47,462 nt of DNA, taken from UHGV virus genome UHGV-0128156; one strand, written 5' to 3'. The notes under the pieces were generated by a model. It ran no database searches and was not told the origin of the DNA. It saw nothing but the letters and a program-made list of their open reading frames with translations. The translations under genes were made by a program, and so were the position numbers. This stretch comes from a virus. Positions 2,438 to 45,733 of the stretch are shown here, piece after piece. The stretch's first letter is position 1, and every line of letters starts with the position of its first letter.

Positions 2438-5400
2438 CCAATTGAATCCTCCCTTGACCAGGTACATTGCTATTCATTTCGAAAGCCCCATTTTTTGGCA
2501 AACGCCAGCCGGTGGAGCCAGGTTGATAGTTTGTTGACTGCAGGCTGTCAGAAATCTGACCAAAGTTAATCGTCAGGTTACGGGCCATCGCCTGCTGAAA
2601 ATAAGCGCCGTTCCCGTCGATACCGAAGACCATATTTTTTTGATCGCCGTTAGGCACATAAACGCCAAACGTATCAGCCTGGACCAGGAACTGTGACTGG
2701 CCGCTGCCGTCAATCCCCAGCTGGATACCCGCCACGTAGTTATTCCCACCGGAAGACGTATTGACCTTAACGCCCCACTGCGCTCCCAATTTCCCGTTTA
2801 AATCCGCCACGGTGGATGCCGTCTGCTGAACGGTCGCAGACATATCCCCGACCTGCGAGGTCAGCGTGGTGATTTGCTCAGTGGTTGATTTTTCCAGGTC
2901 GGCAACGGTTTTGTTCGTCGTGGTGATTGCCGCGCTGTTGTCGCCAATCATGCTGCGCATCTGGTTAAAGCCGGTCGCCATTGCCAGGCCGTTAGATGCG
3001 ATGGTTTCGTCCTGCTTCGTGATGCGCGATTCTGCATCATCCACACGCGAGCCGAGGCTGGTGATTTGCCCTGCCTGCGCGGTGATATCCTTCCCTTGCT
3101 GGGTCACGGTCGCAGTCAGCTGGGTAACGGCGTTCGCGGCGCCAGTGGCGGTATCCTGCGCCTCCTGTGCGTCGGTCACATCGACAATGCTGATATCGTC
3201 CAGATGCAGCGAATAACCGGCTCCACCGTTCGCCCCCCTGGTGGAGATCCACATCTGCGCAATGCTCCGGTCGGCACCAACGGTCGCTACCCCCGTCAGG
3301 AGAACCCATTTACCGCGCGAGATGTTTGTCTCGGAGATACGGACGGCTTCCGGCCACTGGTTTGCGCCGCCATTCTCTCCGCGAGCAAAGAGGCCGACAG
3401 ACACGCTCCAGCCGTTCGGTGTCGACATATCGCTGGCCATGTAAGCCCAGAGAGAAAACCGATACTTACCGCCACCACGAACAGCAAGCCAGTTCCCGAT
3501 CATCTTGTCGCTGTTGCCGCTCTCGCCGTTGTTACGCGTGATTTTGAGCGACTTCTGGCCATTGCGGTAAACATCGGTCGAGACGCGCGCCAGCGAGCTG
3601 CTGCCCAGCTGCTGGTTTGCGGTGTACGACTCAAATGAGCCATCACACCAGGGGTTTAATCCCTGGCTCTGCAGCGCACCGATTGAGGCGTTGACCGACG
3701 TGATCGCGCTGGCATTAGAGGCAATATCTTTTCCCTGCTGTGTCACGGTCGACTGCAGGTTAGATACAGCGCCAGCCGTGGCATCGAGATCGACCCGGTC
3801 AGTAATATCGATAACGTACACATCGTCGATATAAATTTCGCCTGCATTCAAAAACGCGTTGATGCTGACCGACATGGTGCCGTCTTTAGTGGCGGTCCAT
3901 GTGTTGCTGTACTCCTGCCATACGCTGCCAGTCAGCATTGTGGCCGGGTCGAAGCGCGCCTCAACGATTACAGAGCTGTCGAGGTACGCAAATCGAACCT
4001 TGTTATTCGGCTGCGTGTTCGGCTGCATAGTCGACCCGGCCTTAGCCCGCAACCACGCGCCAAACTTGTACGTCCTGCCCTTAACAACAGTAATAACAGT
4101 GTCACTCGACAAAAGAGTCGCGGATGTAGCGGCGACATATTTCACGATTTTTTTGCCGCTATGGGGACTGGATGCCGCCATAATCGTCGTTGGTGCTGGC
4201 GCGGTCCAGTTGGTGAAGTCGCGCTCGAATCCTCCGTTTAAAATCAGGTTGCCCGTGATTTTGTTATCCACGTCAGCCATTGCTGCATTCAGGCTTGCAG
4301 AAACGGCGGTCGTGGCGCTGGCATTCGCAGCAATATCCTTGCCCTGCTGCGTGACCGTCTGCTGCAGCTGCGTGACCGCAGACGTATTTGCATCGATGGC
4401 CACCGCATCGGTGATGTCGTAAATGGCGATGTAGTCAATTTGAATGACCGATGCGTTCGGGTAGCAGTAGAGCGCAAAAACAGAGCCATCCACTGTCGCC
4501 GACGATGGCGCGCTAAACTCAGCGGCATACGTCGCCCAGGTATCCGTGGCGGAGAACTGCCGGTTTTCATAAGTCCCGGCCACATTCCCCAGGTAGTTAA
4601 ACCGGCGAACCATGAAATTCATCGCGCCGGATACTCCCTTCGCCTTAACGATGACCTGGTAGCGACGTGGGGTATTGTGTGGCAGCGGCGCTTTCTGGTT
4701 AGCAAAGAGGCCGGTATACAACGTGCTGTCGAGTTGCGTCATCTGGACGCCGGGTTTACCGTCGCCAAAGTCGCCAAACTCCACCTTGTTACGCGTATTC
4801 CCCTGGACACCCCACAGCGCCGATCCACTCATAAAATTAAAATCGTTTGCCAGGTTCTCGCCGCGATTGAGCATCGCATTCACCGCGCCGGTGACGGAGG
4901 TGATCGCCTGGCTGTTCGTTTCAATTTTCCCTTCCGCTGCCGTGGTTCGTTGCGTCAGGGACTGAATTGCGCTGCTGTTCGCGCTCTGCCCGGATTCAAG
5001 GTTCGACACTCGACCTGTAATGGCTGTAATAGCCTGGCCCTGGCTGGTGATAGTGTTGCCCTGCTGCGTCACTTTCGCATCCAGCTGGGTGACAGCACCG
5101 GCGGCAGCGTCGGCGGCAGTCTGTGCGCCCTGCGCGGCGGTGATCTCCCGGCAGTGGAAATCAGTTGCATACCAGACGGAGCCAAACGGCGCGTTCTGGT
5201 TCACCTGCAGGAATGGGCGCATATATCCGCGCGGGAAGTTAGCCGGGACCGTCCAGCGGTATTTTTTCTCCGTCCAGGTCTGAGTGGGCGCAACGCTACC
5301 CGGTAAAGCAGCATAAGCCACGGCACCCGTATTCGGTCCCGTAGCCGAGCCGATGTACATGTTAAATGCGGCGTTGGAACCTGCCTTTGCCGCTACCCAG

Positions 5401-8400
5401 ACCGAAATCTCGAATACCTGTCCCGCTTTTACCGGCCACGGTGGCGTATTGAGCTGGTGATCGCGTGAGGCCAGTCGCGCTACATAGCGACGCGGAGCGC
5501 CTGCCGGGATGTCAGCATCATACGGAATACCATCATCGTCGTTGCTGTCTACCGTATCCCGACGGGTAAAACCCATCGATGGATATGCGGGGTCAAATGT
5601 CGGGTTCAGGATGTAGTCGCCACCCGCTGCCGTCTGCGAATTCAGAGCAACATTAATCCCGGTGATCGCCGTTCCCTGCGATTCAATTTTACCCTCAGCA
5701 CTGGTGACGCGCGTATCAAGCTTGCTCACGGCATCGGCGGTGGCCGCTTTGGCCAGCCCTTCCTCAACCGTCGCTACGCGTCCTTTCAGGCTGGTTATGG
5801 CCTGGTTCGCCGCCGTAATATCCTTGCCCTGCTTGGTAACGGTGGCGCTGAGGTCCTGTACTGTCGAGCTATCGGCCTTCTGGTCGATTCGTTTCCCCAG
5901 GTCTGTGTTAACGGTATCGATTCTGCCGGTCAGTTGCGTTAGCGATTTACCCTGACTGGTAATCGTATCGCCCTGCTGGGAGACGGTTGTCTGCAGGTTG
6001 GTCAACGCTGTCGCGTTCGCATTAATATTTTCCTGGTCGGTAATATCAATGACGAACATGTCATCGATATAGAGCTCCCCGGAGGCAAGGCGAGCCATAA
6101 CGCTCATCTGCATAACGCCCGATTTATTCGCCTTCCACTTAGCAAATACTTCTGTCCAGACGGAACCAGTCTGCAGTTTTGTTGGGTCAATACGGGCTTC
6201 CTGAATCTGCGAATTGTCATTAAACGCAAACCGGAATTTGTTGCTTTGTTCGGAGCCAGTAACGATAGCCGTCCCGTCTTTCGCTCGTGCGAATCCTCCA
6301 AACCTATAAGTCCGACCAGCAACGACCGTCACGGTCGTGGTATTGCGTACCTCATCCAGCTGGTCGTTATGAGCTTTGAAGTAAAGAATTTTTTTACCTG
6401 AGCTGGGTTGTTGGGCCGTATCCACACGAACATCGGTCGTTGAACCTGTAACCCAATTATCAAAGCCACGCTCAAACCCACCATTCGGGATTAGGTTTCC
6501 GGCCAGCTTGTTGTCTGCGTCATGCTTCATCGCAGAAAGATCTGCTGACAGGCTCGTCGTCGCAGCAACGTTCGCAGCAATATCCTTACCCTGCTGCGTG
6601 ACGGTGGACTTCAGGCTATCCAGCGCGGCGGTGGTGGCTTTCTTCGCCACCTCGGCATTGGTGGTATCAATACACCCACTCAGGCTGGTGATCGCGCTGG
6701 CGTTGGTGGCAATGTCGTCACCGTTCTTCGTGACCTGCGACTGCAGGTCCTGCACCGCTGATGCATCGGCTTTACCAGCGATACCGTTTGAGGCGGTCAG
6801 CATGAAGCCCTGCAGGTAAACACGAGCGGTCGACGGCGTCCATCCTCCGCAGGCCATGCGCAGGTAACACCACCTCCCTTTGAAGTCATTCGGGATCGTG
6901 AACGTCAGCGTGCGGGTCTGGTAGCCGGTGGTGATGCCTGCAAACCAGTTGTTGTCCTGAGTAAGCCATGCGGTCGGGTTCCCCCAATTCTCAATCAGGC
7001 CCATCGTAAAATTCTGGGTCCCGATACTGATCGTCGCGTCGTCCGTCTTGAATCCGAAGGTGAGCGTCAGTACCTGACCGGCTTCGACCGGGATTTTTGT
7101 TCCGTTGGCGATTCGCATCGCCGGCTCGGTCGTGGTGAGACCTTTCATCACCGCGTCATAGACCGGAGCACCCGCGCCGGTGCCGGACAGCTGCCAGTTA
7201 TCCGCTTTATTAATCAGGTCGCCATTCAGCAGGAGGTTGCCGGTCGTAATCTGTGACTTGAGCGCCGTCGTCTGCTGCGCCGTGGTGGCCAGCGTATTCT
7301 CGGCAGTCGTGACGCGGGTCGTCAGTTGCTGGACAGCATCCGAGCTGGCGCTGTCTGCCGGTGCCTGGCTCCAGTCGCTCACAATATTGCCGGATTCAAA
7401 CATCGGAGAGCTGATCCACGCTTCGCGCGCTGCAGCTGCGCCGTCGAGTCTGGCCACAACGAGATACGCCGTCCCGGACAAGCCAGGTTTGCGTTTGTAT
7501 TTAACCCAATAGCGGCTCCAGGACGTGGAGAGCGTCACGGTCACATCGCCGTTATACCCGGCTGGACGCTCCACAATAACGCCCTGGCTGGTTTCAGCGC
7601 GGATAGTGGCATCCGGCGTATTCAGGAAACAACGAACCGGCGTCTTGTCCGTCTTCGCTTTCGCATAGAACGACAGAACATACTCGGTACCGTCAACCGG
7701 CGCGGCCAGCGTGTAGTCGAGGACGGCAAAATCAGTCGCTCCGGCGGCACGCGTCAGGATGCGAACCGCGTTACCCCGGTAACGTTCGGTTGTAGATGGC
7801 GATTTGCCGGTCAGTTCCCCGGAGTTGGGTATCAGGTTTACGCCGCCGATTCGGATGTTATCGACCTTCGATTCCACCCCGGCAATCTGGCTGGCGTTGG
7901 CCTGAACTTTGCCGTCGATAGTCTGGACGTCACCCTCGATTTTCTGGATGGCCAGCGTATGGCCAGCAATGACGCCGTTCGCTGAAACAAGGTCCGCTGC
8001 AACCTGATCCGTTTTCGAGGCAGTCGACTGCAGGTCGCTCGCCAGCGTATCCATGCGCTGGGTCGCCGCTGCAGTGGATTTATCATAATCGACGCGCAAC
8101 GTATCAACGCGGGAGCCGATGGCCTTCTCCGCCGTCACGCGGATTTTCCGCTCTTCGAAAAGCAGGCCAGAAACCAGTTTATTCGGGTCTGTCCCTTCCT
8201 CGTTGCCGCGCAGCTGCACCGCCAGTTGGTTACGCTCCATCGCCTCAGCTGAGTCGGCAGCAGTCATCGCCGTTTTCAGGTCCTGAATCTGCGCCTGCGA
8301 TGCGCCAGGAGTCGGGCGCCCAACGGCCAGCCAGTCAACGGCATAATAGTTATCGGCGTCAGCCGCTCCACCCTGTGAGAAGTCGAGACGCAGGCGGCGG

Positions 8401-11400
8401 ATGGTGCCGGAGGCCTGCCACGGGATATCCGGGATCGCGATAGTGCTGATGCCGGTGGCCGGGTCAAAATCCGGTGCTGGCAGCACCAGGCGGCGTCCAT
8501 CGGTCCAGCCGGTTTCATCAGCGCCAATCCAGTACAGCCGACCGCCCCAGGCCGGGTTGCCGACTTTCTTGATGCGCAGGCGGAGGTACTTATAGGCGCT
8601 GCCGTCAATCAGCGTGCCAGCGCCCGACGGGCTGCGCATGGTCGAAATGGAATCCGCAGGAAGGACCCACCCGTCGTCGTTCGTCGGGAGCGGTTTCGTG
8701 CCGCCGTCGTCAGAACTCCACCCCTCGTTGTCCTTGTCGAAATACCAGATTTTGAGACTGTCGAACTGCTCCCCGGTACCGGCTGAAATCGACGCCATCT
8801 GCTGCGCCAGGCTGTCAAAGCCATCCTGCATGGTGACGTTCGTCGTCTCAATCGCCGCTTCAACTTCGCGTTTGGCACTCAGCAGGTTATCGGCGGCCTG
8901 CTTCGCCAGGGCGGCATCGTCCGTTTCGGCTTTCGCCACCGCCGCCGCAGTATCGCTGGCCGCTTTCTGCGCCGTGGCGGCATCACCTGCAGCGCGGTCT
9001 TTCACTTCCTGCGCCAGCTTGTTGGTCGTGTCGTTAGTTTTGGCGATGTTGGTGGCCAGGTCCTTGCCCTGCTGCGTGACAATGGCCCCCTGTGCGGCGA
9101 CATCCTTCGCCGCCTGGTCAGCGGTTCCCTGGGCGGCGTCCGCAGCCTGTTGCGCGGCGTCGGCAGCAGCGCTGTTGTCCTGGATGCCTTTGTTCAGTTC
9201 CTCGTATGTATCCGAGCCTTTAAGCGCGTCGTCGAGCTGCTGGTAATAATCAGAAACGTTATCGCTGGACATTCCATGCACCCAGCTGGTCCACGGCGAG
9301 GCATTGCCCAGGCGGTCAACCAGGCGCGCGCGGTACCAGAACTGCGTGGCAATCTGCAGGCCCATCTGTTGATACTGTTTGCCCGGATACGCTAAATCGG
9401 TCAGCGGCATCGCACCGTTTCCACTCTGGTCCGGGCTGTACTGCAGTTCAGTTCGCTGGCTATCCTCTGCGCCTGCAGGGAATTCCCAGCGAATTTCGAT
9501 ACCTGCGGTCAGTGAAACGGTCGTCAGCGCCAGCGGCGGCAGCGGCTCGCCGACTTTCCCGGTCAGGGTCTTCTCTTCCGAGTACGCCCAGCCACTGGAA
9601 ATTTCCGCCGCGTTGATCGCACGGACTCGCACCAGATAGCGACCGGCATAAATGCCGCTGACCTCAAATGACGTGGTCGAGCTGCGCGGCACGTTAATCC
9701 AGTTGCCGTCATTGCGGCGCCACTGAGCCTCATAGGCGATAGCGTTTTGTACCGCGTCCCAATTGACCTGCAGGGTTTCGACGCTGATCCCCTGATTCAC
9801 CACGGAGAAGGACGTCAGGAGGATGCCATCTGGCGGAGCCTGGTTGCCAGGCGGGATAACACTAATCGGGCGCTGGTCGATGATTGCGCCGGTATCGATA
9901 CGAGCAAATTTATCCGGGTCGTGAGCCACGCCGGTAATGGTAAGCGTGCCGTTATTGTTGTCCTTTACACCGATAACGCGATACTGCTGCGGCACCAGGT
10001 CGGTATATTCGACGATCCAGACGCACTCCGCCTCTGGTGTCTCACTGTATCCCGTCGTGACCGTTACCTGCCGGCGGCCATTCACCGACAGGATGGCCCT
10101 AGCCTGCGAGATACCCGACGGCAGATTCAGATGCAGGCGGTCGCCTTCTTTTGCATCGATATCACGGTCGAGCGTGATGACGCGTCCATTCACCGCGCTG
10201 ATACGACCACCATTAACTCGCCCGGCCAGCCGTTCATCGCCCAGGCCAATGATGTAACCAGGCTGTGGGATCCTGCCGTCCAGACCAACATCAATTTCGA
10301 CCATACGGTCCTTGTTGTTGGTCAGAATGGCCCATAACCCTTTACGATGGGCTTCACTCTGCCGCGTACATCCAATGGCCGTGACTTCCACCTGATTAAA
10401 GCTGTAACGGGAAACCAGTTCCGGGATAAATGCGGGCTCCATCGCATCGGCATAGGCGTTATCCGGGTCAGACCATGAAACTAGCGCATTGGTGTACCGC
10501 GCCTTACTGGTGCTGCTGGAATAGCGCGGGCTACCGATAATATTTGCGCGCGTATAGTTGAAATCGACATCACGCGGCATATCGGCCTGCACGATAATCT
10601 GCTCACCACTCCAGCAGGTCATACCCCGGAAAATAGCAGCGAAATCGCGTAGTACGGTGTAGGCGTCGTTGCGTTCCTGGACATAAACGTTACAGGTATG
10701 GCGAGGCTCCATACCATCACCGCCCCTGCCATCGGGTATCAGCTGATCGCAATACTGCGCAATCGGGTAAAGCGCCCATTTGGAGATATTCGCGCTGGTC
10801 AGACGATCGCCAAGACCGAAACGATCAGAGACAATAATGTCGTAATAAATCCATGCCGGGTTATCAGTCCATGCCCATTTGAAGCCCCCTGTCCATGTGC
10901 CGGTATATTCGCGCGTTTCCGGGTTGTAGTTATCCGGGACACGGATAACACGCCCGCGCGGCTCGCAGGAGATTTGCGGGATAGAACCATTGAACTGGCT
11001 GGAGTCGAATTCGATGTACAGCAGAGCGGTATGTGGGTAACGCAGTTTCGCGTCAATAACCTCGGTGTAGCTCTGTAGCGTCATGACATCGCCGATTTTG
11101 ACGCTGTTCGCGTCCGGCGATACCTTGCGAAGACGCAGCGTCCAGGTGCTGCCTGCCTGCGGTAAATCTATACGGTGGCTACGTTCATACCCGGAAGTCG
11201 TTTTGCCGGAGGCTGCGGTTTCCAGTACGGTCTGCCAGGCTTCGCCATCCGTCTGTAAATCGATGGCGTATTTAACGGTATTCCCCACCACATCGCCGTC
11301 GTCTTCCTGTTTCATCAGGGATGGCCATTTCAGGCGGACGCGAACGGCAGAAAGCTGGGTATTGGTGAATGTGTGGGTCCAGGCGGTCTCGCTGGAAACT

Positions 11401-11699
11401 TCCGTCCCTACGCTAATTTCATTTTCAGTGCCGGGAATACCCTGAATATAATTTTGTGCCTGCGTACCCGGCCTGAATTCCCACGCTACGCCGCTAAAGC
11501 TTTGCGAACCGTCGGCATTCTCCAGAGGGGTGCCATCGAGATAAATATCTTTCCCGGTTAAACCACCCGCAAATTCACCCTCACCTAATGCGATAAGAAT
11601 TTTGGCTTTTGCTACAGACTGTAAATCGTCCGGCTGTTCCGTGGGCGTACGCTGTTTAGAGCTGCCACCTTTACGCCCTTTAATGATGTTATTTGCCAT
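2373..11699 (-). CDS. J: Giant host-specificity / central tail fibre protein (lambda J-like N-terminal region with a very long repeat-rich C-terminal extension), 3108 aa
   Basis: The N-terminal ~1000 aa follow the lambda gpJ pattern and the gene sits directly downstream of gpI. The C-terminal two thirds contain at least 8 diverged modules built from the motif V(T/S)QQGKDI...ITSL plus CBM-like NL(I/L)PNGGFE(R)(G/D)F(D/T)NW segments. Confidence 0.85.
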   Translation of the reverse strand: MANNIIKGRKGGSSKQRTPTEQPDDLQSVAKAKILIALGEGEFAGGLTGKDIYLDGTPLENADGSQSFSGVAWEFRPGTQAQNYIQGIPGTENEISVGTEVSSETAWTHTFTNTQLSAVRVRLKWPSLMKQEDDGDVVGNTVKYAIDLQTDGEAWQTVLETAASGKTTSGYERSHRIDLPQAGSTWTLRLRKVSPDANSVKIGDVMTLQSYTEVIDAKLRYPHTALLYIEFDSSQFNGSIPQISCEPRGRVIRVPDNYNPETREYTGTWTGGFKWAWTDNPAWIYYDIIVSDRFGLGDRLTSANISKWALYPIAQYCDQLIPDGRGGDGMEPRHTCNVYVQERNDAYTVLRDFAAIFRGMTCWSGEQIIVQADMPRDVDFNYTRANIIGSPRYSSSTSKARYTNALVSWSDPDNAYADAMEPAFIPELVSRYSFNQVEVTAIGCTRQSEAHRKGLWAILTNNKDRMVEIDVGLDGRIPQPGYIIGLGDERLAGRVNGGRISAVNGRVITLDRDIDAKEGDRLHLNLPSGISQARAILSVNGRRQVTVTTGYSETPEAECVWIVEYTDLVPQQYRVIGVKDNNNGTLTITGVAHDPDKFARIDTGAIIDQRPISVIPPGNQAPPDGILLTSFSVVNQGISVETLQVNWDAVQNAIAYEAQWRRNDGNWINVPRSSTTSFEVSGIYAGRYLVRVRAINAAEISSGWAYSEEKTLTGKVGEPLPPLALTTVSLTAGIEIRWEFPAGAEDSQRTELQYSPDQSGNGAMPLTDLAYPGKQYQQMGLQIATQFWYRARLVDRLGNASPWTSWVHGMSSDNVSDYYQQLDDALKGSDTYEELNKGIQDNSAAADAAQQAADAAQGTADQAAKDVAAQGAIVTQQGKDLATNIAKTNDTTNKLAQEVKDRAAGDAATAQKAASDTAAAVAKAETDDAALAKQAADNLLSAKREVEAAIETTNVTMQDGFDSLAQQMASISAGTGEQFDSLKIWYFDKDNEGWSSDDGGTKPLPTNDDGWVLPADSISTMRSPSGAGTLIDGSAYKYLRLRIKKVGNPAWGGRLYWIGADETGWTDGRRLVLPAPDFDPATGISTIAIPDIPWQASGTIRRLRLDFSQGGAADADNYYAVDWLAVGRPTPGASQAQIQDLKTAMTAADSAEAMERNQLAVQLRGNEEGTDPNKLVSGLLFEERKIRVTAEKAIGSRVDTLRVDYDKSTAAATQRMDTLASDLQSTASKTDQVAADLVSANGVIAGHTLAIQKIEGDVQTIDGKVQANASQIAGVESKVDNIRIGGVNLIPNSGELTGKSPSTTERYRGNAVRILTRAAGATDFAVLDYTLAAPVDGTEYVLSFYAKAKTDKTPVRCFLNTPDATIRAETSQGVIVERPAGYNGDVTVTLSTSWSRYWVKYKRKPGLSGTAYLVVARLDGAAAAREAWISSPMFESGNIVSDWSQAPADSASSDAVQQLTTRVTTAENTLATTAQQTTALKSQITTGNLLLNGDLINKADNWQLSGTGAGAPVYDAVMKGLTTTEPAMRIANGTKIPVEAGQVLTLTFGFKTDDATISIGTQNFTMGLIENWGNPTAWLTQDNNWFAGITTGYQTRTLTFTIPNDFKGRWCYLRMACGGWTPSTARVYLQGFMLTASNGIAGKADASAVQDLQSQVTKNGDDIATNASAITSLSGCIDTTNAEVAKKATTAALDSLKSTVTQQGKDIAANVAATTSLSADLSAMKHDADNKLAGNLIPNGGFERGFDNWVTGSTTDVRVDTAQQPSSGKKILYFKAHNDQLDEVRNTTTVTVVAGRTYRFGGFARAKDGTAIVTGSEQSNKFRFAFNDNSQIQEARIDPTKLQTGSVWTEVFAKWKANKSGVMQMSVMARLASGELYIDDMFVIDITDQENINANATALTNLQTTVSQQGDTITSQGKSLTQLTGRIDTVNTDLGKRIDQKADSSTVQDLSATVTKQGKDITAANQAITSLKGRVATVEEGLAKAATADAVSKLDTRVTSAEGKIESQGTAITGINVALNSQTAAGGDYILNPTFDPAYPSMGFTRRDTVDSNDDDGIPYDADIPAGAPRRYVARLASRDHQLNTPPWPVKAGQVFEISVWVAAKAGSNAAFNMYIGSATGPNTGAVAYAALPGSVAPTQTWTEKKYRWTVPANFPRGYMRPFLQVNQNAPFGSVWYATDFHCREITAAQGAQTAADAAAGAVTQLDAKVTQQGNTITSQGQAITAITGRVSNLESGQSANSSAIQSLTQRTTAAEGKIETNSQAITSVTGAVNAMLNRGENLANDFNFMSGSALWGVQGNTRNKVEFGDFGDGKPGVQMTQLDSTLYTGLFANQKAPLPHNTPRRYQVIVKAKGVSGAMNFMVRRFNYLGNVAGTYENRQFSATDTWATYAAEFSAPSSATVDGSVFALYCYPNASVIQIDYIAIYDITDAVAIDANTSAVTQLQQTVTQQGKDIAANASATTAVSASLNAAMADVDNKITGNLILNGGFERDFTNWTAPAPTTIMAASSPHSGKKIVKYVAATSATLLSSDTVITVVKGRTYKFGAWLRAKAGSTMQPNTQPNNKVRFAYLDSSVIVEARFDPATMLTGSVWQEYSNTWTATKDGTMSVSINAFLNAGEIYIDDVYVIDITDRVDLDATAGAVSNLQSTVTQQGKDIASNASAITSVNASIGALQSQGLNPWCDGSFESYTANQQLGSSSLARVSTDVYRNGQKSLKITRNNGESGNSDKMIGNWLAVRGGGKYRFSLWAYMASDMSTPNGWSVSVGLFARGENGGANQWPEAVRISETNISRGKWVLLTGVATVGADRSIAQMWISTRGANGGAGYSLHLDDISIVDVTDAQEAQDTATGAANAVTQLTATVTQQGKDITAQAGQITSLGSRVDDAESRITKQDETIASNGLAMATGFNQMRSMIGDNSAAITTTNKTVADLEKSTTEQITTLTSQVGDMSATVQQTASTVADLNGKLGAQWGVKVNTSSGGNNYVAGIQLGIDGSGQSQFLVQADTFGVYVPNGDQKNMVFGIDGNGAYFQQAMARNLTINFGQISDSLQSTNYQPGSTGWRLPKNGAFEMNSNVPGQGRIQLDESGLKVFDQNGVLRFVGGRY
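3084..9095. repeat. Dispersed intragenic nucleotide repeat family inside J (about 25-45 bp core aatatccttgccctgctgcgtgac...ctgcag)
   Basis: Copies near 3084, 3724, 4332, 5048, 5817, 5950, 6579, 6711 and 9058. They encode the repeated peptide TQQGKDI on the minus strand. The artefactual plus-strand ORFs carrying ISLPCCVTV are their mirror image. Confidence 0.8.
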
Positions 11700-32267: not shown

Positions 32268-32336
32268 AGGGATGTGACTTCGATTTTGTATTGGGCGTGA
32301 TACACGGGTATCGGTATCACAACTACATTATAGACA

Positions 32337-32366
32337 ATAAAAAAGCCCTGTATCTCTACAGGGCCC
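32337..32366 (-). terminator. Late-leader terminator 2
   Basis: Minus strand reads GGGCCCTGTAGAGATACAGGGC followed by TTTTTTATTGTC. Confidence 0.65.
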
Positions 32367-32639
32367 TGAAATCAGGACAGAAAGAATCGAACACCTAAGG
32401 TGTGTGGTGCCGGGTGCTTCCCGGAGAATCGGCCAGCGAACCGATCCGTGTGCTTACGATAAAAGATAGGAACCGCTGTACACTCCACCGCGTTGGGGAT
32501 TCACCACGCAGGAAAAGTAACAAAAATCTTCACCCACCACACTCAAGATTTTGTCTAAATCTGGAAAATACAACTCGACGATATGACAGGGGTACTGATG
32601 CTCAGCATCTCGCGAATACCCCTGTCGTATCGCCGGAAA

Positions 32640-32724: not shown

Positions 32725-32760
32725 GAATGGATTATCTGATTTTTTGGCCCATTTTCAACA
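32725..32760 (-). promoter_or_regulatory. Putative late promoter (pR'-like) downstream of the Q-position gene
   Basis: Minus strand reads TTGAAA, then 16 nt, then GATAAT. A short transcript would end at terminator 1, which is the lambda 6S-RNA arrangement. Confidence 0.5.
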
Positions 32761-32786: not shown

Positions 32787-33392
32787 TTAATCAGCCTGAA
32801 TTCCCTTTCGTACCGACAGAAATGTTTTTGCTCTGAATATTTCCAGGCACCATCGCACGCGCTTGCGGGCTTCACCATCTGTTAGCCACGGAGCCACCAG
32901 CTGTAATTCCCGGGTTATGTCAGAGATTTTTTTACGTGTGGTGTAATAACTAACTCCTACCAGATAAACCGGATCCGCCGTTTCAAATGCGCCGAGAACA
33001 CAGCGCTCTACGAATTCGGCATCATCATCATGAATAGCGGAATCTATCAGGCCGATGACAGGCTGAGGCCATAAAATCGCATGTGCTCGGTTTAAGGCTT
33101 GCTGGCCTCGATATCCCTCCTCCCTCGCCTGTTCTATCGCGGCAGTAAATCGTTCCAGCGCTTTATCTGACCAGCGGTCCCCTTTCAAACCTCGCCAGCA
33201 GGAGTGGCCTGTGGGCTTTCGGGGAGCTGTTCCCCCACGCATGCTCTCTCCCCATATTGTAAGTAGCGATTTAATCCAGGCAGACTGAATGCCATTCAGG
33301 GGCGTAAACCGGCCTAACCAGCTTTTGCGAGGCGCGGCGGCCACTGTTTCTAATCCTGCGCGCTGCAGCCGGCGTTGACGTGGTGTCATCAT
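32787..33392 (-). CDS. Putative late-gene regulator at the Q position (antiterminator candidate; no recognisable Q zinc finger)
   Basis: About 200 aa, last gene before the late promoter and terminators. The assignment is positional only. Confidence 0.35.
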   Translation of the reverse strand: MMTPRQRRLQRAGLETVAAAPRKSWLGRFTPLNGIQSAWIKSLLTIWGESMRGGTAPRKPTGHSCWRGLKGDRWSDKALERFTAAIEQAREEGYRGQQALNRAHAILWPQPVIGLIDSAIHDDDAEFVERCVLGAFETADPVYLVGVSYYTTRKKISDITRELQLVAPWLTDGEARKRVRWCLEIFRAKTFLSVRKGIQAD

Positions 33393-33402
33393 GCTCTTCT
33401 CC

Positions 33403-34434
33403 TTACGCCAGAACGCCGAGCGCATAGGCCCGGTCCAGCAATTTAATAATTAATTCCGGCTGACTGCCGTACTCACTCTCGAAAGCAACTGGATCGTGAT
33501 GAAGCGTCCGGTGATGCTTACGGCAAAGAGGGATCGTAAAAATATCGTGTGCCTTGGTACCAACGCCGCCCTGCCCCCATCCGATAAGGTGATGCGCATC
33601 GTCGGCAGACTGACCGCAGCACATACATGGCTGAGTTTTTACCCAGGAAATAAAACCATCTGACACCCAGCGGATCCGCTTAGGTCTGGTGAATAAAGTG
33701 GCTGGTGCCACGGGATCAACAACCACTGGCACCTCTGGTTTTACCGGGGCTGGTGGTCCAGGATGCCTGGCAACCTTAGCAACAAGCGGGGAAAGAATGC
33801 TGGTGGCCGGCACCGATGGGACGATTTCGCTTTCTTTGTAGACTGACTGGAAAACCTCTTCTTTAAGCCGGAGGGAACGGCGCGCCATCTCTTCTGTGAT
33901 TTCGTCCCCTATCCCAACGCTGACAGCCCACCAGCACAATTCAGCAAGTGACAGGGAGCGTTCAGGGTCAAATCCCAGTGCGATACGGGCAGCATCGATT
34001 ATCAGATCTGCGTTATTGATACCTACCAGCCTATCAAGGGTTTGATCGGTCTGGTACTTCAGCTCGTTATCACAATGCCAGCATGCGACGATTGCCCCAG
34101 TTGAATGCCGGAACGTTACCAGCTCTGAATGGTGATAATCAGAATGTGGCCACTGGCAATGCTTAACCCTCTTAAGCAACCAGGATTCGAGACTATTCAC
34201 ACCACCAGCAGCCCTCACTACCCGCTCTTTCATAAAGAATGGTCGAATATCAGGATCATCTCGTAAAGGTTGCCCGACGTCAGGAATGCGCCCGCTTGGT
34301 AGAGCCTTCATTTTTTCTGGCAGAGTCTCCACCAGCACGCGCCCACCGCTGAATAAAGGCATCAACTCTTTCCCGGGTTTAAGCAACACAATTCCCAGGT
34401 GCCGGGCAACATCAACATTTAGTAATGCGCGCAT
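33403..34434 (-). CDS. DUF968-like phage protein with C-terminal HNH-type motif
   Basis: C-terminus CMCCGQSADDAHHLIGWGQGG...CRKHHRTLHHD. Size and position resemble the YdfU/DUF968 proteins of lambdoid prophages. Confidence 0.5.
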   Translation of the reverse strand: MRALLNVDVARHLGIVLLKPGKELMPLFSGGRVLVETLPEKMKALPSGRIPDVGQPLRDDPDIRPFFMKERVVRAAGGVNSLESWLLKRVKHCQWPHSDYHHSELVTFRHSTGAIVACWHCDNELKYQTDQTLDRLVGINNADLIIDAARIALGFDPERSLSLAELCWWAVSVGIGDEITEEMARRSLRLKEEVFQSVYKESEIVPSVPATSILSPLVAKVARHPGPPAPVKPEVPVVVDPVAPATLFTRPKRIRWVSDGFISWVKTQPCMCCGQSADDAHHLIGWGQGGVGTKAHDIFTIPLCRKHHRTLHHDPVAFESEYGSQPELIIKLLDRAYALGVLA

Positions 34435-34637
34435 CAGTCCCTCCACATTTTTTGTGTGTAGGTTCTGTTAATGCGCGGTGGCTTGCTGGATTCCGGCAAC
34501 AGCACACGGAGTTCCCATGAGATAAAGTCGCTCGACAGGCTTTTCTCAACCGGACAATTCTTTTTCCGGTAGCGTTCCGCCAGTTCCAGAGCTTGAGACT
34601 CTGAAAGTTGTTCATGGAGAAACCAGCTTTTCTTCAT
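34434..34637 (-). CDS. Hypothetical 67-aa protein
   Basis: Translationally coupled on both sides (ATGA upstream, TGATG downstream). Confidence 0.45.
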   Translation of the reverse strand: MKKSWFLHEQLSESQALELAERYRKKNCPVEKSLSSDFISWELRVLLPESSKPPRINRTYTQKMWRD

Positions 34638-35026
34638 GGGCGGGCCTCGTACACTCGCAGGAACTCCAGCGCCCGATCACGCGCCCCAGGTTCGTCAGCG
34701 ATCATTTCCTGCAGCAGCTGCACGGCAAGTAATGGTTCCTTTCTTCCGACGACAGAAATCCCACGGGAAACACCGCGAGATAGTTTTATGAAGTTTTTTT
34801 TATGTAACGCACGAAGGTGCAAAGCGACAGCATTCGGTGAGCTAACGCCGAGAAGCCCGGCCAGTTCCTGAACGGTCGGCGGGTAGCCATGCTGATTGAT
34901 ATATGCCACCAGCAGATCAAAAACTTCCTGCTGTCGTGGTGTCAGGTTGTGGAATGAAGAAAGACCGGCACCATCAACATGATCGCCAGCCTGTTCCGCA
35001 TCAGATATTAATTTTGTTTGCGCCAT
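34634..35026 (-). CDS. LexA N-terminal DNA-binding-domain homologue lacking the S24 autocleavage domain
   Basis: [65 protein letters not shown] aligns with the LexA winged-helix DNA-binding domain ([67 protein letters not shown]). Only about 45 further residues and no Ser/Lys peptidase motifs. GGAGAG RBS. Confidence 0.7.
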   Translation of the reverse strand: [130 protein letters not shown]

Positions 35027-35066: not shown

Positions 35067-35357
35067 CTATGACGGGAGTGTAACAGAGCCCGGAGGAATC
35101 TGGTAACCCCCTCCGGTCTTTGCTCTTTCAATCATCTGCGAAAACAGCGAGAGAGTCCCCACGATCTCATCGGGCTGCAGAGGCATAAACGAAACAGTAT
35201 CACCGCGACGGTACATTAAAGCGCGCTCACATACGGGAAAAGAGGTGAGACGGGCAACAATTAAACCGTCATCGCATCTGATTACTACATAGCCGGTGTT
35301 CGGCATTTGTTGTTTTTTAGCCACAGCAAAATCCTCAAAATAAACCAGGTCAGCCAC
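35067..35357 (-). CDS. Hypothetical protein immediately downstream of dinI (candidate antirepressor; GTG start, alternative TTG at 35372)
   Basis: Second gene of the LexA-box operon. No recognisable domain. Confidence 0.4.
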   Translation of the reverse strand: MADLVYFEDFAVAKKQQMPNTGYVVIRCDDGLIVARLTSFPVCERALMYRRGDTVSFMPLQPDEIVGTLSLFSQMIERAKTGGGYQIPPGSVTLPS

Positions 35358-35368
35358 TGGACCTCTAC

Positions 35369-35602
35369 TCAATAGAACCAGTCGTCAGCACTTTCCCAGG
35401 TATCCTGAAGGATTTGCTCCACCCGCTTTTTGTCCCCATCCATCCCACCAAGCACACTCAGACCATCAGTACCGGTTCGGCGAATGATAAAACTGCGGTT
35501 GTTAAAGTTTTGGTCATGTCGCCGCAGCAACTCTTTCTCTAATGCCGGGACAGCGCCATCTGGTAGCTTTTTGCGACGATCAATTGTGATTTCCACTTTC
35601 AT
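35369..35602 (-). CDS. dinI: DinI-family protein (DNA-damage-inducible protein I homologue)
   Basis: C-terminus ...KKRVEQILQDTWESADDWFY matches DinI ...KQRISEILQETWESADDWF. AAGGGG RBS. Confidence 0.8.
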   Translation of the reverse strand: MKVEITIDRRKKLPDGAVPALEKELLRRHDQNFNNRSFIIRRTGTDGLSVLGGMDGDKKRVEQILQDTWESADDWFY

Positions 35603-35621: not shown

Positions 35622-35664
35622 TACTGTATAAATAAACAGTATACCTGAAGAATGAAATGGTCAA
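35622..35664 (-). promoter_or_regulatory. SOS promoter with a consensus LexA box overlapping the -10
   Basis: TACTGTATAAATAAACAGTA (CTGT-N8-ACAG) at 35622-35641. Minus-strand -10 TATACT at 35638-35643 and -35 TTGACC at 35659-35664. Confidence 0.75.
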
Positions 35665-35723: not shown

Positions 35724-35754
35724 AACCAAAAAACCCGCCGAAGCGGGTTTTTAC
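35724..35754. terminator. Bidirectional intrinsic terminator insulating the SOS operon from the upstream early-right operon
   Basis: AAAAAACCCGCCGAAGCGGGTTTTT, with A-runs and T-runs on both sides. Confidence 0.7.
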
Positions 35755-35938: not shown

Positions 35939-36382
35939 TTATTTCAGAAATTTGTTATACACGAAGAACTCTCTATCTCGCACAAATCCATTACGCTCAT
36001 ACAACGCCTGTGCAGGGATATTATCTGTAGCGGTACTAAGCATGATAAAAGCCGAATCGCTCTCCTTCGCCAGTTGCTCAGCACGGGATATTAGTTTCTG
36101 TGCAACACCATGCTTCCTAGCTGACTCATCAACGAAAAGGTCATAAAGCAACCAGATACGTTTCATCTCGAGAGAGCAAAACAAAGGATAGAGTTGCGCA
36201 AAGCCGACCGCTTTCCCATCAACATCGGCGTAAAAAATCACGGACTCATTAAGCTGAAGGCGCTTGAGAATAAAATCTCTGGCCTGGGACGCGTTTTCCT
36301 CGACCTTGTAGAAACGACGGTAACCGAGATACAAAGGAAGGATAGTTTCCACATCATGTGGTTGAGCTTGATAAATTTTCAT
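35939..36382 (-). CDS. GNAT family N-acetyltransferase (AT-rich moron)
   Basis: Acetyl-CoA binding motif region ...VDESARKHGVAQKLISRAEQLAKESDSAFIMLST...ALYERNGF. Low GC. Confidence 0.8.
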   Translation of the reverse strand: MKIYQAQPHDVETILPLYLGYRRFYKVEENASQARDFILKRLQLNESVIFYADVDGKAVGFAQLYPLFCSLEMKRIWLLYDLFVDESARKHGVAQKLISRAEQLAKESDSAFIMLSTATDNIPAQALYERNGFVRDREFFVYNKFLK

Positions 36383-40239: not shown

Positions 40240-40629
40240 ATGAAAAACACTGAAGAACTCAACAACCAACTGATTGCTCGTTTGGAAGAAATTACTCAAA
40301 GAGGGATCAGCAAGGCGGATATGGCTCGCATTGCTGGAGTTACACCTCAAGCGGTGAATGGGTGGTTTAAGAAAGGAGTAATCAGTAAAAAGTCCGCAAT
40401 TGCCCTCGCGGAAGCTGCCAATGTGTCTGTAACTTGGTTGCTTGGAGAGAAGGTATCTGAAGATTCAGGCCTCAAGCCAAATGAGAGCAAAATGTTACGC
40501 CTGTTTAGGCAGTTACCTGAGGCAGAACAAGAGAGAATGATCGATACTTTTGAAGTCCGCCTAAAAGAAATCGATGATTATGTTGAGAAATATCTTCGTG
40601 GTCGATTTAAGGCTAGAGACACTAACTAA
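40240..40629 (+). CDS. CI-like prophage repressor, HTH only, without an S24 autocleavage domain
   Basis: HTH ISKADMARIAGVTPQAVNGWFKKGVISKKSAIALAEAANV. 129 aa with no Ser-Lys peptidase domain. Divergent from cro. Confidence 0.7.
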   Translation: MKNTEELNNQLIARLEEITQRGISKADMARIAGVTPQAVNGWFKKGVISKKSAIALAEAANVSVTWLLGEKVSEDSGLKPNESKMLRLFRQLPEAEQERMIDTFEVRLKEIDDYVEKYLRGRFKARDTN

Positions 40630-42063: not shown

Positions 42064-44178
42064 ATGAACAACTACGCGTATCTCATTAAAGCAAAGGCAA
42101 AAGCCACCGAAGCTAAAAACCTCTTCTGCTGGTTCTCTGCTAAATCCGATTCCCGCGCCGAACGCCGTATCCTGGACATTCTGGAAGACGCTGAGATTAA
42201 TGTTGGCCGCGGCGCCAACCACCAGCTGCCTATCCGCACCAACTGGTTTATCGTTGATGACCTACCGGAAGAAGGTGTACTGGATGACACCTGGTGTGAC
42301 CGCTACGAACTTGGCGAGGATGGACTGAGCTGGCAAAAAATTGCTGCTCCAGTCCCTGCTGAGCCAGAAGTAAGCAATGAACCGGTAGCTAACCCCCCTG
42401 TCAGCAAGAATGATGAAGAGGACTATTCGGCCAATGAAGATGCCCTGTTCAACCTGGCTGAAATGCCTTTCCGCACGCAGCTGCTTGCCCAGTACATGGC
42501 CGACGATCGCCATGTTTATCACATTAGCATTCCGCACCGTGACCGCCTTTCTGTGATGGAAATGGATACGGAGAATCACGCTGTACAGAATCTGATTCTG
42601 GCTGCTGAAAATGTTCCGGAAATTAAGAAATACGATATGCCTGGTCTGTGGAAATTCACCAGTGCCTTCAAAACCGTTTTCCCAGAAGGAAAGCGCTATG
42701 AGCTTGGTAAGCAGGTTCAGTTTACCAAATTGTGGTTTGAAACGGCACACATTGACCGTGGGGTCCTAAGCAAAGAATGGGCTGCTGGTAATTACATATC
42801 ATCAATAAGTCGTACACCTTCAGGCGCCAATGCTGGCGGCGGCAATAAGACCGACCGTAACCCTGAGCTTAGCCATGATTTTGATAGCCTGGACCTAGAA
42901 ATTGCCTTAGCAACTCTGCCGATGGATTTTAACATCTATGATATTCCGGGCGGCGTTTACCGTCGTGCGAAAGAAATCGTTCAGAAAAAAGAAAGTCCAT
43001 TCAAAGAATGGTCCTCATCACTTCGTGCCACACCTGGGATCCTCGATTACTCGCGCGCAGCAATTTTCGCTCTGATCCGCGAAGCGTCTTCTGGATTAAC
43101 TCCATTCCCAGATAGGCTTCGTGGCTATATCAGCGCGAGCCTTACAGAAAGCGAGCATTCAAAGCCCTCAGAAGAAACACTAAAAGCAGCACGTCATACC
43201 CCAAACAAAAGCTGGGAAAGCGAAATTAGCCGCCAGCTTGCCGCAGACCGCGGGGAGTTTGTTGAAGGGATAAGTGACCCAACAGATCCAAAGTGGGTAA
43301 CAGAACATCTGACAGAAACTAAGCAACCAGGAGTTGCCAACCTCGGCGGCGGCGTGTTCTCCATTGATGGCCTCATGTCATCAGAAACCACAGCCCAGGA
43401 AAAAGAGACCACCAGCGATGTGCAGATGGAAGAGAATTTCGGGAATGAAACCGAAACTGATAATGAAATTTCTGAGAGCGAAACAGCAACTGAGACAGGT
43501 GCAGGTAATGCTGACATTGGTAGCGAAACAACTACCGTAAATATTGAATCCGGACATCATAATGATGTTGAAGATTTACCAGCAGATAATATTCACGTCA
43601 TGGTTGACCTTGAAACCATGGGGAATAAACAAGACGCTCCTATCGTCGCTATCGGCGCAGTTGTGTTTGATCCGGCAACAGGCTCAATCGGAGAAAGTTT
43701 CTACAAAGTCGTAAGCCTGGAATCCTCAGTGAATTGGGGCGCCAAAATGGATCCATCAACCGTCATCTGGTGGCTTAAGCAGTCCTCTGAAGCGCGCTCG
43801 GCAATCGTGAATGATGATGCTATCCCGCTACATGATGCCCTGCTCCAGTTCGGTGAATTCATTTTTGAAAATATCCCGGGCGGTCGCAAAAAAGCACAGG
43901 TCTGGGGAAATGGCGCATCTTTCGATAATTGTATTCTGCGTTCTTCATTTGATTTCATCGCTGAAGAATACCCATGGGAATACTGGAATGATCGCGATGT
44001 TCGAACAATTGTAGAGCTCGGTAAAGCAATTGGAATCGACCCAAAGAAAACCATCCCATTTGAGGGAGAACGGCACAACGCCCTTGCCGATGCTATACAC
44101 CAGGCCCGGTATGTTTCTGCAATCTGGCAGCGTCTCATTGAGGGTAATAGAGTGCTGCGAAAACTGACTCAAAACTGA
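42064..44178 (+). CDS. Large early protein with a C-terminal DEDDh (DnaQ-like) 3'-5' exonuclease domain and a long N-terminal region of unknown function with an acidic linker
   Basis: The C-terminal ~190 aa carry VMVDLETMG (Exo I), ...WGNGASFD... (Exo II) and HNALADA (Exo III, H-x4-D). The N-terminal 500 aa are unassigned, followed by an ETETDNEISESETATETG acidic tract. Confidence 0.65.
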   Translation: MNNYAYLIKAKAKATEAKNLFCWFSAKSDSRAERRILDILEDAEINVGRGANHQLPIRTNWFIVDDLPEEGVLDDTWCDRYELGEDGLSWQKIAAPVPAEPEVSNEPVANPPVSKNDEEDYSANEDALFNLAEMPFRTQLLAQYMADDRHVYHISIPHRDRLSVMEMDTENHAVQNLILAAENVPEIKKYDMPGLWKFTSAFKTVFPEGKRYELGKQVQFTKLWFETAHIDRGVLSKEWAAGNYISSISRTPSGANAGGGNKTDRNPELSHDFDSLDLEIALATLPMDFNIYDIPGGVYRRAKEIVQKKESPFKEWSSSLRATPGILDYSRAAIFALIREASSGLTPFPDRLRGYISASLTESEHSKPSEETLKAARHTPNKSWESEISRQLAADRGEFVEGISDPTDPKWVTEHLTETKQPGVANLGGGVFSIDGLMSSETTAQEKETTSDVQMEENFGNETETDNEISESETATETGAGNADIGSETTTVNIESGHHNDVEDLPADNIHVMVDLETMGNKQDAPIVAIGAVVFDPATGSIGESFYKVVSLESSVNWGAKMDPSTVIWWLKQSSEARSAIVNDDAIPLHDALLQFGEFIFENIPGGRKKAQVWGNGASFDNCILRSSFDFIAEEYPWEYWNDRDVRTIVELGKAIGIDPKKTIPFEGERHNALADAIHQARYVSAIWQRLIEGNRVLRKLTQN

Positions 44179-44247: not shown

Positions 44248-44481
44248 ATGTACGAACTCACACTGTCACCAGTGGAAATTGCTGAAATTACTGGATACAG
44301 ACGGTACACAGAACAGCAGCGTCAACTTCGATGTCACGGCATTCCGTTTACTACGGATCGAAGAAATCGCCCAATTGTCCTGCGTAGAAGTCTGGCACCT
44401 AATATTACTGAATTGCCAAAGGTTGACGAGTATGTTGCAACAGAACCCAACTTTGACGCCATCTATGGGAAGACCACGTAA
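44248..44481 (+). CDS. xis: Excisionase-like protein (DUF4224 family)
   Basis: ELTLSPVEIAEITGYRRYTEQQRQLRCHGIPF...RPIVLRRSL matches the conserved DUF4224 pattern found next to integrases. GAGGTG RBS. Confidence 0.65.
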   Translation: MYELTLSPVEIAEITGYRRYTEQQRQLRCHGIPFTTDRRNRPIVLRRSLAPNITELPKVDEYVATEPNFDAIYGKTT

Positions 44482-45502
44482 AGATCCGAAGGATATACAA
44501 CTTCCGCCTCGGGTCACAAAAAATAAATATAGCTATGTCTGGAAACCAAAAGGTACAAAGAAAAGTATTAGTTTGGGGAAGATACGCGAAACAAGTATGT
44601 CAAAACTCTGGGCCAATTACGAAAAAGCAAAAGCTGAGCGCCATGACGTAATGACATTTGCCAAGCTATGGGGAATGTTCCTCGACAGCCCGACATTCAC
44701 TGAGCTGGCGACTCGTACCCAAAGTGATTATCGCCAACACCAGAAGAAGCTACTGGCAGTATTCGGCAAGATGAAAGCAGACGACATTAAAATTGAGCAG
44801 GTTCGTATTTATATGGATAAGCGCGGCGTTTCCAGTAAGAACCAGGCAAATCAGGAAGTATCCAGCATGTCGCGGGTTTTTGGTTGGGGCTTTGAACGTG
44901 GCTATGTGAAGGGAAATCCATGTCGCGGGATCCGTAAGTTCACTCTCGCAGATCGTGACGTTTATATTCCAGATGAAGATTATCTGGCTGTTTACGAATG
45001 CGCACGAATAGAAGTAAAGGTTGCGATGGAGATATCTTATCTCTGCGCAGCCCGCGAAGGCGACGTTTTTGATTTGATAATTACCGAGCTAATGGAAGAT
45101 GGGATTTTTATTGAGCAAAACAAGACGGGTAAAAAACAGATCAAGAAATGGACACCACGTCTACGGGCAGCGATTGATCTGGCTAAAAAACATCTTATCG
45201 GAAAATCAGCAGCCGGTTATGTAATCCCTTCACCATCAGGTGGACGGATGAATAAAAAAACATTCAATACATGGTGGAATAACGCGAAAAAGCAAGCCGC
45301 GGTGAAACTGGGTCGACCTGTTCCGGGTACGTTCCACGATATTAAAGCCAAGGCAATTTCAGACTATGATGGTAGTAGCAGAGATAAGCAACTTTTTTCA
45401 GGGCATAAAACTGAAAGTCAAGTGTCAAGTTATGACCGAAAAATAAAAGTAACACCAACCCTTAACCTTGAACCTCTTCTCAACGAAAAAAAAGCCCGCT
45501 AA
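44465..45502 (+). CDS. int: Lambda-family tyrosine integrase
   Basis: N-terminus MGRPRKDPKDIQLPPRVTKNKYSYVWKPKGT parallels lambda Int MGRRRSHERRDLPPNLYIRNNGYY. C-terminal H..K...GH......Y catalytic region. Confidence 0.85.
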   Translation: MGRPRKDPKDIQLPPRVTKNKYSYVWKPKGTKKSISLGKIRETSMSKLWANYEKAKAERHDVMTFAKLWGMFLDSPTFTELATRTQSDYRQHQKKLLAVFGKMKADDIKIEQVRIYMDKRGVSSKNQANQEVSSMSRVFGWGFERGYVKGNPCRGIRKFTLADRDVYIPDEDYLAVYECARIEVKVAMEISYLCAAREGDVFDLIITELMEDGIFIEQNKTGKKQIKKWTPRLRAAIDLAKKHLIGKSAAGYVIPSPSGGRMNKKTFNTWWNNAKKQAAVKLGRPVPGTFHDIKAKAISDYDGSSRDKQLFSGHKTESQVSSYDRKIKVTPTLNLEPLLNEKKAR

Positions 45503-45523: not shown

Positions 45524-45733
45524 TTATGCTGCTTTTTTCTCAGAGCAGTTGCAAAGTGGAATAGGAAAAGGTTTTCCTTTCTTTGCGTGACGCACTACAC
45601 CATCTACACATACGGTATAGCGAAAAATAATCTCGCAAGTATTACCACATTTGCGACAGGTTCCAGTAGCCATAAGCTTCCTTCCCTGCATACCTGTAAA
45701 TTCATACAGATTGCACTTTGTTGGGAGAACCAC
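45524..45733 (-). CDS. Small Cys-rich zinc-ribbon protein
   Basis: CRKCGNTC...C.....CNC motifs. 55-69 aa depending on start. Confidence 0.4.
   Translation of the reverse strand: MVLPTKCNLYEFTGMQGRKLMATGTCRKCGNTCEIIFRYTVCVDGVVRHAKKGKPFPIPLCNCSEKKAA

Follow-up and report, generated by a model that had tools for sequence, protein, structure and literature searches.

A prophage gene for the DNA-binding half of LexA in the SOS-type dinI operon of a Gifsy-like prophage

In Klebsiella, Salmonella and E. coli, the release of toxins and the transfer of genes are driven by prophages that DNA-damaging antibiotics induce. The window analysed here, the whole 47,462-nucleotide stretch of virus genome UHGV-0128156, is a lambdoid, Gifsy-like prophage of the Klebsiella type, and the small gene considered below is thus prophage-borne, as the first-pass annotation had taken it to be. 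That annotation described the gene product as a LexA DNA-binding domain devoid of the autocleavage domain, and proposed that an uncleavable LexA mimic of this type could re-repress SOS boxes after induction, including the one of its own operon, a function it regarded as undescribed for a prophage gene. The locus therefore raises the question of what remains of LexA in this protein, and whether it would read the sites of the host repressor or different ones.

The open reading frame starts with the ATG at 35026, preceded by a GGAGAG ribosome-binding site, and ends with the TGA at 34636-34634 (Table 1). The sole domain match of its product is Pfam LexA_DNA_bind (PF01726; residues 27-89, E=3.6e-21). 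The model for full LexA, TIGR00498, scores 67.2 bits, below its cut-off of 110.95 bits, and aligns through model positions 3-91 of 203 only. Similarly, BLASTP aligns the protein with residues 4-92 only of E. coli LexA, at 49% identity. No S24 peptidase was found by Pfam or by BLASTP, which returned nothing in the LexA protease domain, and the protein, which ends at residue 130, lacks the Ser119/Lys156 dyad of LexA. The description as a LexA N-terminal domain without protease is borne out by these matches. The accompanying statement that an Ala-Gly site is missing holds in part: three Ala-Gly dipeptides exist (A13-G14, A20-G21 and A55-G56), although none of the three lies in the context of the LexA cleavage site, and the Ala84-Gly85 scissile bond of LexA is without a counterpart in the best alignment. 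The ratio dN/dS, calculated against four orthologues, is 0.13-0.28, which indicates a real gene constrained by purifying selection; the nearest protein, from Klebsiella oxytoca, is 96% identical. The feature is thus the DNA-binding half of LexA, encoded by a real prophage gene. PADLOC assigned none of four genes (LexA-like, ORF96/101, ORF67 and acetyltransferase) to a defence or anti-defence system; two upstream ORFs were weakly matched at E about 0.003-0.004.

Table 1. Coordinates of the LexA-like gene and its predicted parts, of the surrounding operon and of the immunity repressor gene within the window.
Feature	Position	Strand	Remarks
LexA-like gene	34634-35026	minus	130 aa; PF01726 only; PHROG 362
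N-terminal arm, residues 1-26	34949..35026	minus	pLDDT <50 for residues 1-23, predicted disordered
LexA-type winged helix-turn-helix, residues 27-92	34751..34948	minus	SRGI wing conserved
C-terminal two-helix hairpin, residues 96-127	34646..34741	minus	conserved across PHROG 362
SOS (LexA) box TACTGTTTATTTATACAGTA	35622-35641	minus	near-consensus; overlaps -10
Putative sigma-70 promoter	35638..35664	minus	-35 TTGACC 35659-35664, -10 TATACT 35638-35643, by eye
Rho-independent terminator	35729..35752	minus	just upstream of SOS promoter
dinI homologue	35369..35602	minus	77 aa; ATG 35602; 60% identity to Gifsy-1 DinI
ORF96/101	35067..35357	minus	PHROG 1813; 96 aa from GTG 35357 with GAGG ribosome-binding site
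ORF67	34434..34637	minus	PHROG 1212; 38% identity to Gifsy-1 STM2620.1n
DUF968/HNH protein gene	33403..34446	minus	PHROG 96
Q-like antiterminator gene	32787..33425	minus	PHROG 753; followed by PR'-like promoter 32731-32758
Immunity repressor gene	40240..40629	plus	129 aa; HTH_3 only; 29% identity to Gifsy-1 repressor

In an AlphaFold2 model (42 homologues, with three phage-record rows left out; mean pLDDT 74.8), residues 1-23 make up a disordered arm, residues 30-92 a winged helix, and residues 96-109 and 115-127 two further helices. Among solved structures LexA itself is the best match, and Foldseek superposes the model on the LexA N-terminal domains of 3jso, 1jhh and 1lea, 66-68 residues aligning with an rmsd of 0.6-1.7 A and 51-54% identity. 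Taken with the PF01726 and BLASTP matches, the superposition argues that the protein does not belong to an unrelated winged-helix family, the alternative to which the first-pass annotation had itself drawn attention. Compared with cellular LexA (E. coli; 1jhf and 3jso), the winged helix is 49-54% identical and displays the same S39/P40/N41/A42 set and SRGI wing. In contrast, cellular LexA carries the S24 domain, Ser119/Lys156 and Ala84-Gly85 in its cleavage context, none of which is found in the phage protein, and its dimerisation element is a different one. Beyond the wing, from about residue 92, the remaining 38 residues form two predicted helices rather than a protease core, with the pattern A..LL..L...AR..A..FL in the PHROG 362 alignment. 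This two-helix tail is the probable dimerising element, in place of the C-terminal domain of LexA. BLASTP pairs an 11-residue stretch of the tail with LexA VGRVAAGEPLLAQQ, an alignment in which the phage protein lacks VAA-G, as if it had lost the linker together with the scissile site. A vestigial LexA cleavage-site region was considered for this stretch but is not established, as HMMER and BLASTP align it differently and helices are predicted there, not strands; when the tail alone was compared with LexA, the observed score was reached by 314 of 5000 shuffles and is not significant. The N-terminal arm is confined to a subfamily of 130-135 aa, in which the Ala/Val-Gly at residues 20-21 is semi-conserved. 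By analogy, this arm may recall the N-terminal cleavage arm of UmuD.

The contact residues of LexA follow three papers citing the LexA-DNA structure, according to which LexA reads CTGT mainly through S39, N41, A42 and E45, with E44 also listed and R28 placed on the backbone; the E45K substitution of LexA is likewise described as abolishing specific SOS-box binding. The recognition helix is SPNAVALHL in the phage protein and SPNAAEEHL in LexA. S39, P40, N41, A42 and the SRGI wing are retained, and the substitutions are R28V, A43V, E44A and E45L in LexA numbering, so that from the contact set S39/N41/A42/E45 plus R28 only S, N and A remain. Among 98 clusters of phage-family homologues, S39, N41 and the wing show little or no variation. 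Only 35 of the 98 retain E45, which is otherwise mostly Asp or Leu, while R28 persists in a single cluster and the whole LexA recognition helix likewise in one (P0054); the helix classes include AAEH, AADM, VLLH, ATDM, VAEH, IAEH, ALTH and others. Full-length LexA proteins from 26 Pasteurellaceae species served as the cellular control. Their helix SPNAAEEHL is identical to that of E. coli in 25 species, the 26th differing by P40A only, and both R28-A-E and E44-E45 are kept in all 26. Positions that are invariant in cells thus vary in the phage family, which favours an altered or relaxed specificity and disfavours a faithful mimic. The SOS-box mimicry originally put forward is not supported as stated, given the three substitutions at E45, E44 and R28 and the low retention of E45 and R28 in the family. 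Judged from these residues, the reading of an uncleavable LexA mimic on SOS boxes is weakened, and binding of the protein to SOS boxes is possible.

The LexA-like gene is the third of a closely packed or overlapping series formed by dinI, ORF96/101, the LexA-like gene, ORF67, the DUF968 gene and the Q-like gene. The start codon of ORF67 and the stop codon of the LexA-like gene overlap in ATGA, and ORF96/101 has an alternative start, the TTG at 35372, that would yield 101 aa. With the SOS box ahead of dinI and genes this tightly arranged, the proposed placement in one operon with dinI behind an SOS promoter stands. The 16-bp core of the box TACTGTTTATTTATACAGTA is identical in the orthologous Klebsiella and Raoultella loci, and its sequence suggests that LexA controls the promoter of the operon. 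The TTGACC/TATACT promoter itself was not flagged by a consensus promoter scan. Because the box overlaps the -10 element, any protein bound there would repress. Directly upstream of the terminator and the SOS promoter lies a moron-like gene for a GNAT acetyltransferase (35939-36382, minus), in place of which the Klebsiella and Raoultella loci carry other genes. Within the window, palindromes of the form CTGT-N8-ACAG are limited to the box at the dinI promoter and a further one past int. The latter, a second perfect box (CTGTAAATTCATACAG, 45694-45709), is located just past the integrase gene (44279-45502), in the 5' end of an ORF (45524-45733, minus) that is Cys-rich, encodes 69 aa and has no Pfam match. 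It could mark a further gene under SOS control, either at the edge of the prophage or in flanking host DNA.

This layout is closely reminiscent of the Gifsy prophages, in which a terminator and a LexA box precede dinI, followed by an antirepressor gene with a GUG start and by an irsA homologue (Lemire et al. 2011, PMC3121763). In those prophages induction runs through the antirepressor and not through repressor cleavage, and deletion of the genes flanking the antirepressor left induction unaffected (Lemire et al. 2011, PMC3121763). The window displays the same succession of terminator and SOS box before dinI and a small GUG-start ORF after it; the DinI and ORF67 proteins have Gifsy-1 homologues, and the immunity repressor is similarly short, non-cleavable and homologous to that of Gifsy-1 (identities in Table 1). 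No S24 peptidase domain was found in this 129-aa repressor, which implies induction via an antirepressor; the immunity region also codes for a Cro/YdaS-like and a cII/YdaT-like protein. The difference resides in the third gene. In Gifsy-1 this is the irsA homologue STM2620, a DUF1367/NinB-like protein (phrog_319), whereas here it is the LexA fragment, which takes the irsA slot of the known Gifsy SOS operon. The LexA-like gene was considered as a homologue of Gifsy irsA and dismissed, STM2620 being a DUF1367/phrog_319 protein with no similarity to it. ORF96/101 occupies the position of the Gifsy antirepressor gfoA/gftA, with a matching GUG start, and is a positional antirepressor candidate. BLASTP revealed no similarity between ORF96/101 and GftA, which belong to different PHROGs (1813 and 4847), and a faint common pattern is visible in an alignment of six sequences. 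ORF96/101 shares 87% identity with its counterpart in locus L013, a locus whose repressor is 31% identical, and 78% identity with that in L014, whose repressor reaches 91%; its sequence thus does not track the immunity repressor. In locus L021 a PHROG 1813 ORF lies directly behind an SOS box (CTGTACATTCATACAG) without dinI.

The LexA-like protein matches phrog_362, annotated as "transcriptional repressor", with E=4.1e-40, residues 27-125 aligning to positions 3-101 of the 106 in the profile. The search for further prophage ORFs limited to the LexA N-terminal domain, recommended in the first-pass annotation, found many. By tblastn the family is present in 63 phage records, among them SfV (orf42), SfIV, cdtI, mEp390, mEp460 ("LexA DNA binding domain protein"), Stx2c and Klebsiella phages. 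A large protein search gave 107 clusters, named "LexA family protein" or "DNA-binding protein" by NCBI, whose named taxa are genera of the Enterobacteriaceae such as Klebsiella, Raoultella, Enterobacter, Citrobacter and Phytobacter. Intact members in these clusters measure 105-136 aa, longer entries resembling alternative starts, read-throughs or fusions, and none of the 107 clusters carries an S24 protease domain. A structure search of viral models indicated that proteins of 65-150 aa that comprise only LexA's DNA-binding domain are common in phages generally. The family also appears in a Stx-phage pangenome paper as "pham 237, pfam01726, 15 phages", and a functional study of the enterobacterial PHROG 362 family was not found in the literature. 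The gene therefore belongs to an already annotated family (PHROG 362, SfV orf42, mEp460, pham 237), and its kind has a characterised precedent in GIL01 gp6, so that the novelty suggested at first does not hold.

The family occurs in two settings. In the loci examined, the 130-135-aa form, which bears the arm, always follows a PHROG 1813 ORF and precedes ORF67, the PHROG 1813 ORF being found ahead of it in the window and in loci L006, L009, L011 and L021. In Klebsiella and Raoultella it usually lies behind dinI and the same SOS box, the exceptions being L021, with an SOS box and no dinI, and L011, where the roughly 600 bp of contig upstream hold no SOS box. In contrast, the 106-108-aa form occupies ordinary nin regions, where dam or replication genes precede it and rusA follows; the loci of this form that were examined contain no dinI and no SOS box adjoining the gene, and most lack any SOS box within 10 kb. 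Members of the SfV orf42 type, with 106-108 aa, share with the protein of the window the winged helix-turn-helix, the two-helix tail and the slot between the replication genes and DUF968/Q, and differ from it in having no arm, ORF101, dinI or adjoining SOS box and in their recognition helices (AVEH, AAEH and AADM). DUF968 lies downstream of the LexA-like gene in 17 of 17 related loci examined, and the location in the window, in the nin region upstream of the DUF968/HNH and Q antiterminator genes, is that of PHROG 362. As the shorter members are devoid of dinI and of an adjoining SOS box, self-repression of an SOS operon, which the first-pass annotation had envisaged, cannot be the general role of the family.

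The precedent is gp6 of GIL01, a tectivirus of Bacillus thuringiensis, a truncated LexA homologue of 66 aa that is transcribed from the LexA-repressed promoter P1 and has evolved to bind another palindrome, GaCACAnnTGTGaC, through which it turns on the late promoter P3 (Fornelos et al. 2018, PMC6182141). As its promoter is repressed by LexA, gp6 appears after DNA damage. Both gp6 and the protein of the window are phage proteins with PF01726 only, that stem from LexA's DNA-binding domain and lie behind a LexA-repressed promoter, a property that the promoter sequence suggests here. The differences are substantial. The gp6 protein belongs to PHROG 3502, and its match to phrog_362 does not go beyond 2.8e-5; it shares 33% identity with the LexA-like protein over 39 residues, its key residue Lys38 aligns with a conserved Asn of the latter, and it has neither the C-terminal helical tail nor the N-terminal arm. 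Its separate PHROG and the short stretch of 33% identity make gp6 an independent capture and a functional analogue, not a member of the same family. In addition, gp6 was captured in a Gram-positive tectivirus and its function is demonstrated, whereas any function of the protein studied here is a predicted one.

A search for an alternative operator covered the inverted repeats between 31.5 and 41.5 kb, where none was convincing, and all palindromes of the form NTGT-N(4-12)-ACAN, of which, apart from the two canonical SOS boxes, nothing stood out in regulatory regions; the other repeats seen were ori-like and inside the O gene. No palindrome was seen beside the -35 element of PR'. Loci that differ in helix class have almost the same dinI promoter, with an unchanged SOS-box core, and almost the same PR' region, and L014, with an immunity repressor 91% identical, has a different helix class. 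Co-variation of the helix class with these phage sites or with the immunity type was thus not observed. The lack of both an alternative operator and co-variation also fits an invariant, possibly host, target.

The likeliest reading, which is held tentatively, is that the gene product is a regulator derived from LexA, insensitive to RecA, probably dimeric and altered in its operator specificity. Such a regulator would descend from an enterobacterial LexA and possess its winged helix, a phage-specific two-helix tail as the probable dimeriser, and no protease. It would be transcribed together with dinI and the candidate antirepressor from a promoter under LexA control and, as the analogy to lambdoid nin regions suggests, early rightward transcription in lytic growth probably also reads the gene. 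Its operator would most likely be related to the SOS box without being identical to it, the TGT core being read by S, N and A, and the protein may then control the lytic programme or some host promoters with a changed specificity, as gp6 does in GIL01, rather than act as a faithful LexA surrogate. Against altered specificity it can be argued that substitutions at the variable helix positions may merely be tolerated, in which case the protein would still bind SOS boxes. In a rather doubtful alternative, which builds on the mimic of the first-pass annotation, a dimer formed through the tail would occupy canonical SOS boxes after cleavage of host LexA, re-repress its own dinI operon, damp host SOS genes together with DinI, and possibly also hit the LexA-controlled antirepressor operons of rival prophages. 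The roughly 50% identity to the host LexA N-terminal domain is consistent with such activity, as are the intact S39-P40-N41-A42 and SRGI wing, and some relatives keep E45 or, in P0054, the whole LexA helix. The gene is co-transcribed with dinI, itself an SOS modulator, behind a box whose overlap with the -10 would make any binder a repressor, while the fruitless operator search and the lack of co-variation with phage sites suit an invariant host target. What weakens this alternative is the set of E45L, E44A and R28V substitutions, considered beside the loss of specific binding that is described for LexA E45K, and the variability in the phage family of three positions that are invariant in 26 cellular LexAs. 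A different dimerisation module, moreover, need not reproduce the LexA half-site spacing, and the 106-aa relatives examined have no dinI or adjoining SOS box, most lacking any such box within 10 kb. In Gifsy, deletions flanking the antirepressor were harmless to induction (PMC3121763), although the third gene there encodes a different protein.

Two further explanations part from repression of SOS boxes altogether. It is improbable that the protein is an activator of a phage promoter, for instance one of the late or lysis type, acting like gp6 from a site near the -35: the GIL01 precedent and the position of the gene, shortly before the Q-like gene and the late region, point that way, but late control has its own Q-like antiterminator and conserved PR' promoter, no palindrome lies beside the -35, and gp6 is in a different PHROG (3502), with its 39-residue match and its K38 aligned with Asn here. 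A role mainly in protein-protein contacts rather than in sequence-specific DNA binding, as a partner or modulator of ORF96/101 and ORF67 or as a decoy for host factors through the Ala-Gly arm or a vestigial cleavage-site stretch, is very improbable. It would account for the trio of ORF101, the 130-135-aa LexA-like protein and ORF67 being kept even without dinI (L021) or an SOS box (L011), for an arm specific to this subfamily and for the 11-residue resemblance of the tail to LexA VGRVAAGEPLLAQQ; conserved gene order may, though, be mere linkage, and the tail similarity taken alone falls within what shuffled sequences reach. The invariance or near invariance of S, N, A and the wing across the family argues for retained DNA binding.

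A gene that is very common in nin regions codes for a LexA-derived protein that is not open to inactivation by RecA and, in Gifsy-type prophages, this gene appears coupled directly to the SOS signal, beside a likely antirepressor. Should SOS-type boxes be bound, a phage-controlled layer of the SOS response would bear on the timing and termination of induction, on prophage competition and on mutagenesis; should the specificity be new, this would be a second independent case of phages converting the host LexA DNA-binding domain into a regulator of their own. A broader conjecture, which is unlikely as it stands, is that PHROG 362 proteins are dimeric, RecA-proof off-switches or re-programmers of SOS that take over LexA-type boxes once LexA is lost. 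If so, the host SOS regulon would be shut down or reshaped, including the antirepressor operons of rival prophages, colicins and SOS-induced toxins, the diversified recognition helices would pick different subsets of boxes and, in Gifsy-type prophages, co-expression with DinI would form a two-pronged SOS damper.

Some additional features of the prophage were observed. Downstream of the Q-like gene, the PR'-like promoter and a terminator, an Rfam match to the STnc100 sRNA is located at 32333-32538 (minus), with 59.5 bits against a gathering score of 47, and elements of the type 'GGTGAATCCCC...' are repeated around this region in the window as well as in the Klebsiella loci. The structural and tail region includes an ORF of 3108 aa (2373-11699, minus). 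On the early-left side, a 704-aa protein (42064-44178, plus) contains both an Exonuclease VIII N-terminal region and an Rv2179c-like 3'-5' exoribonuclease domain, and the same Pfam domain also adjoins the Raoultella locus L009.
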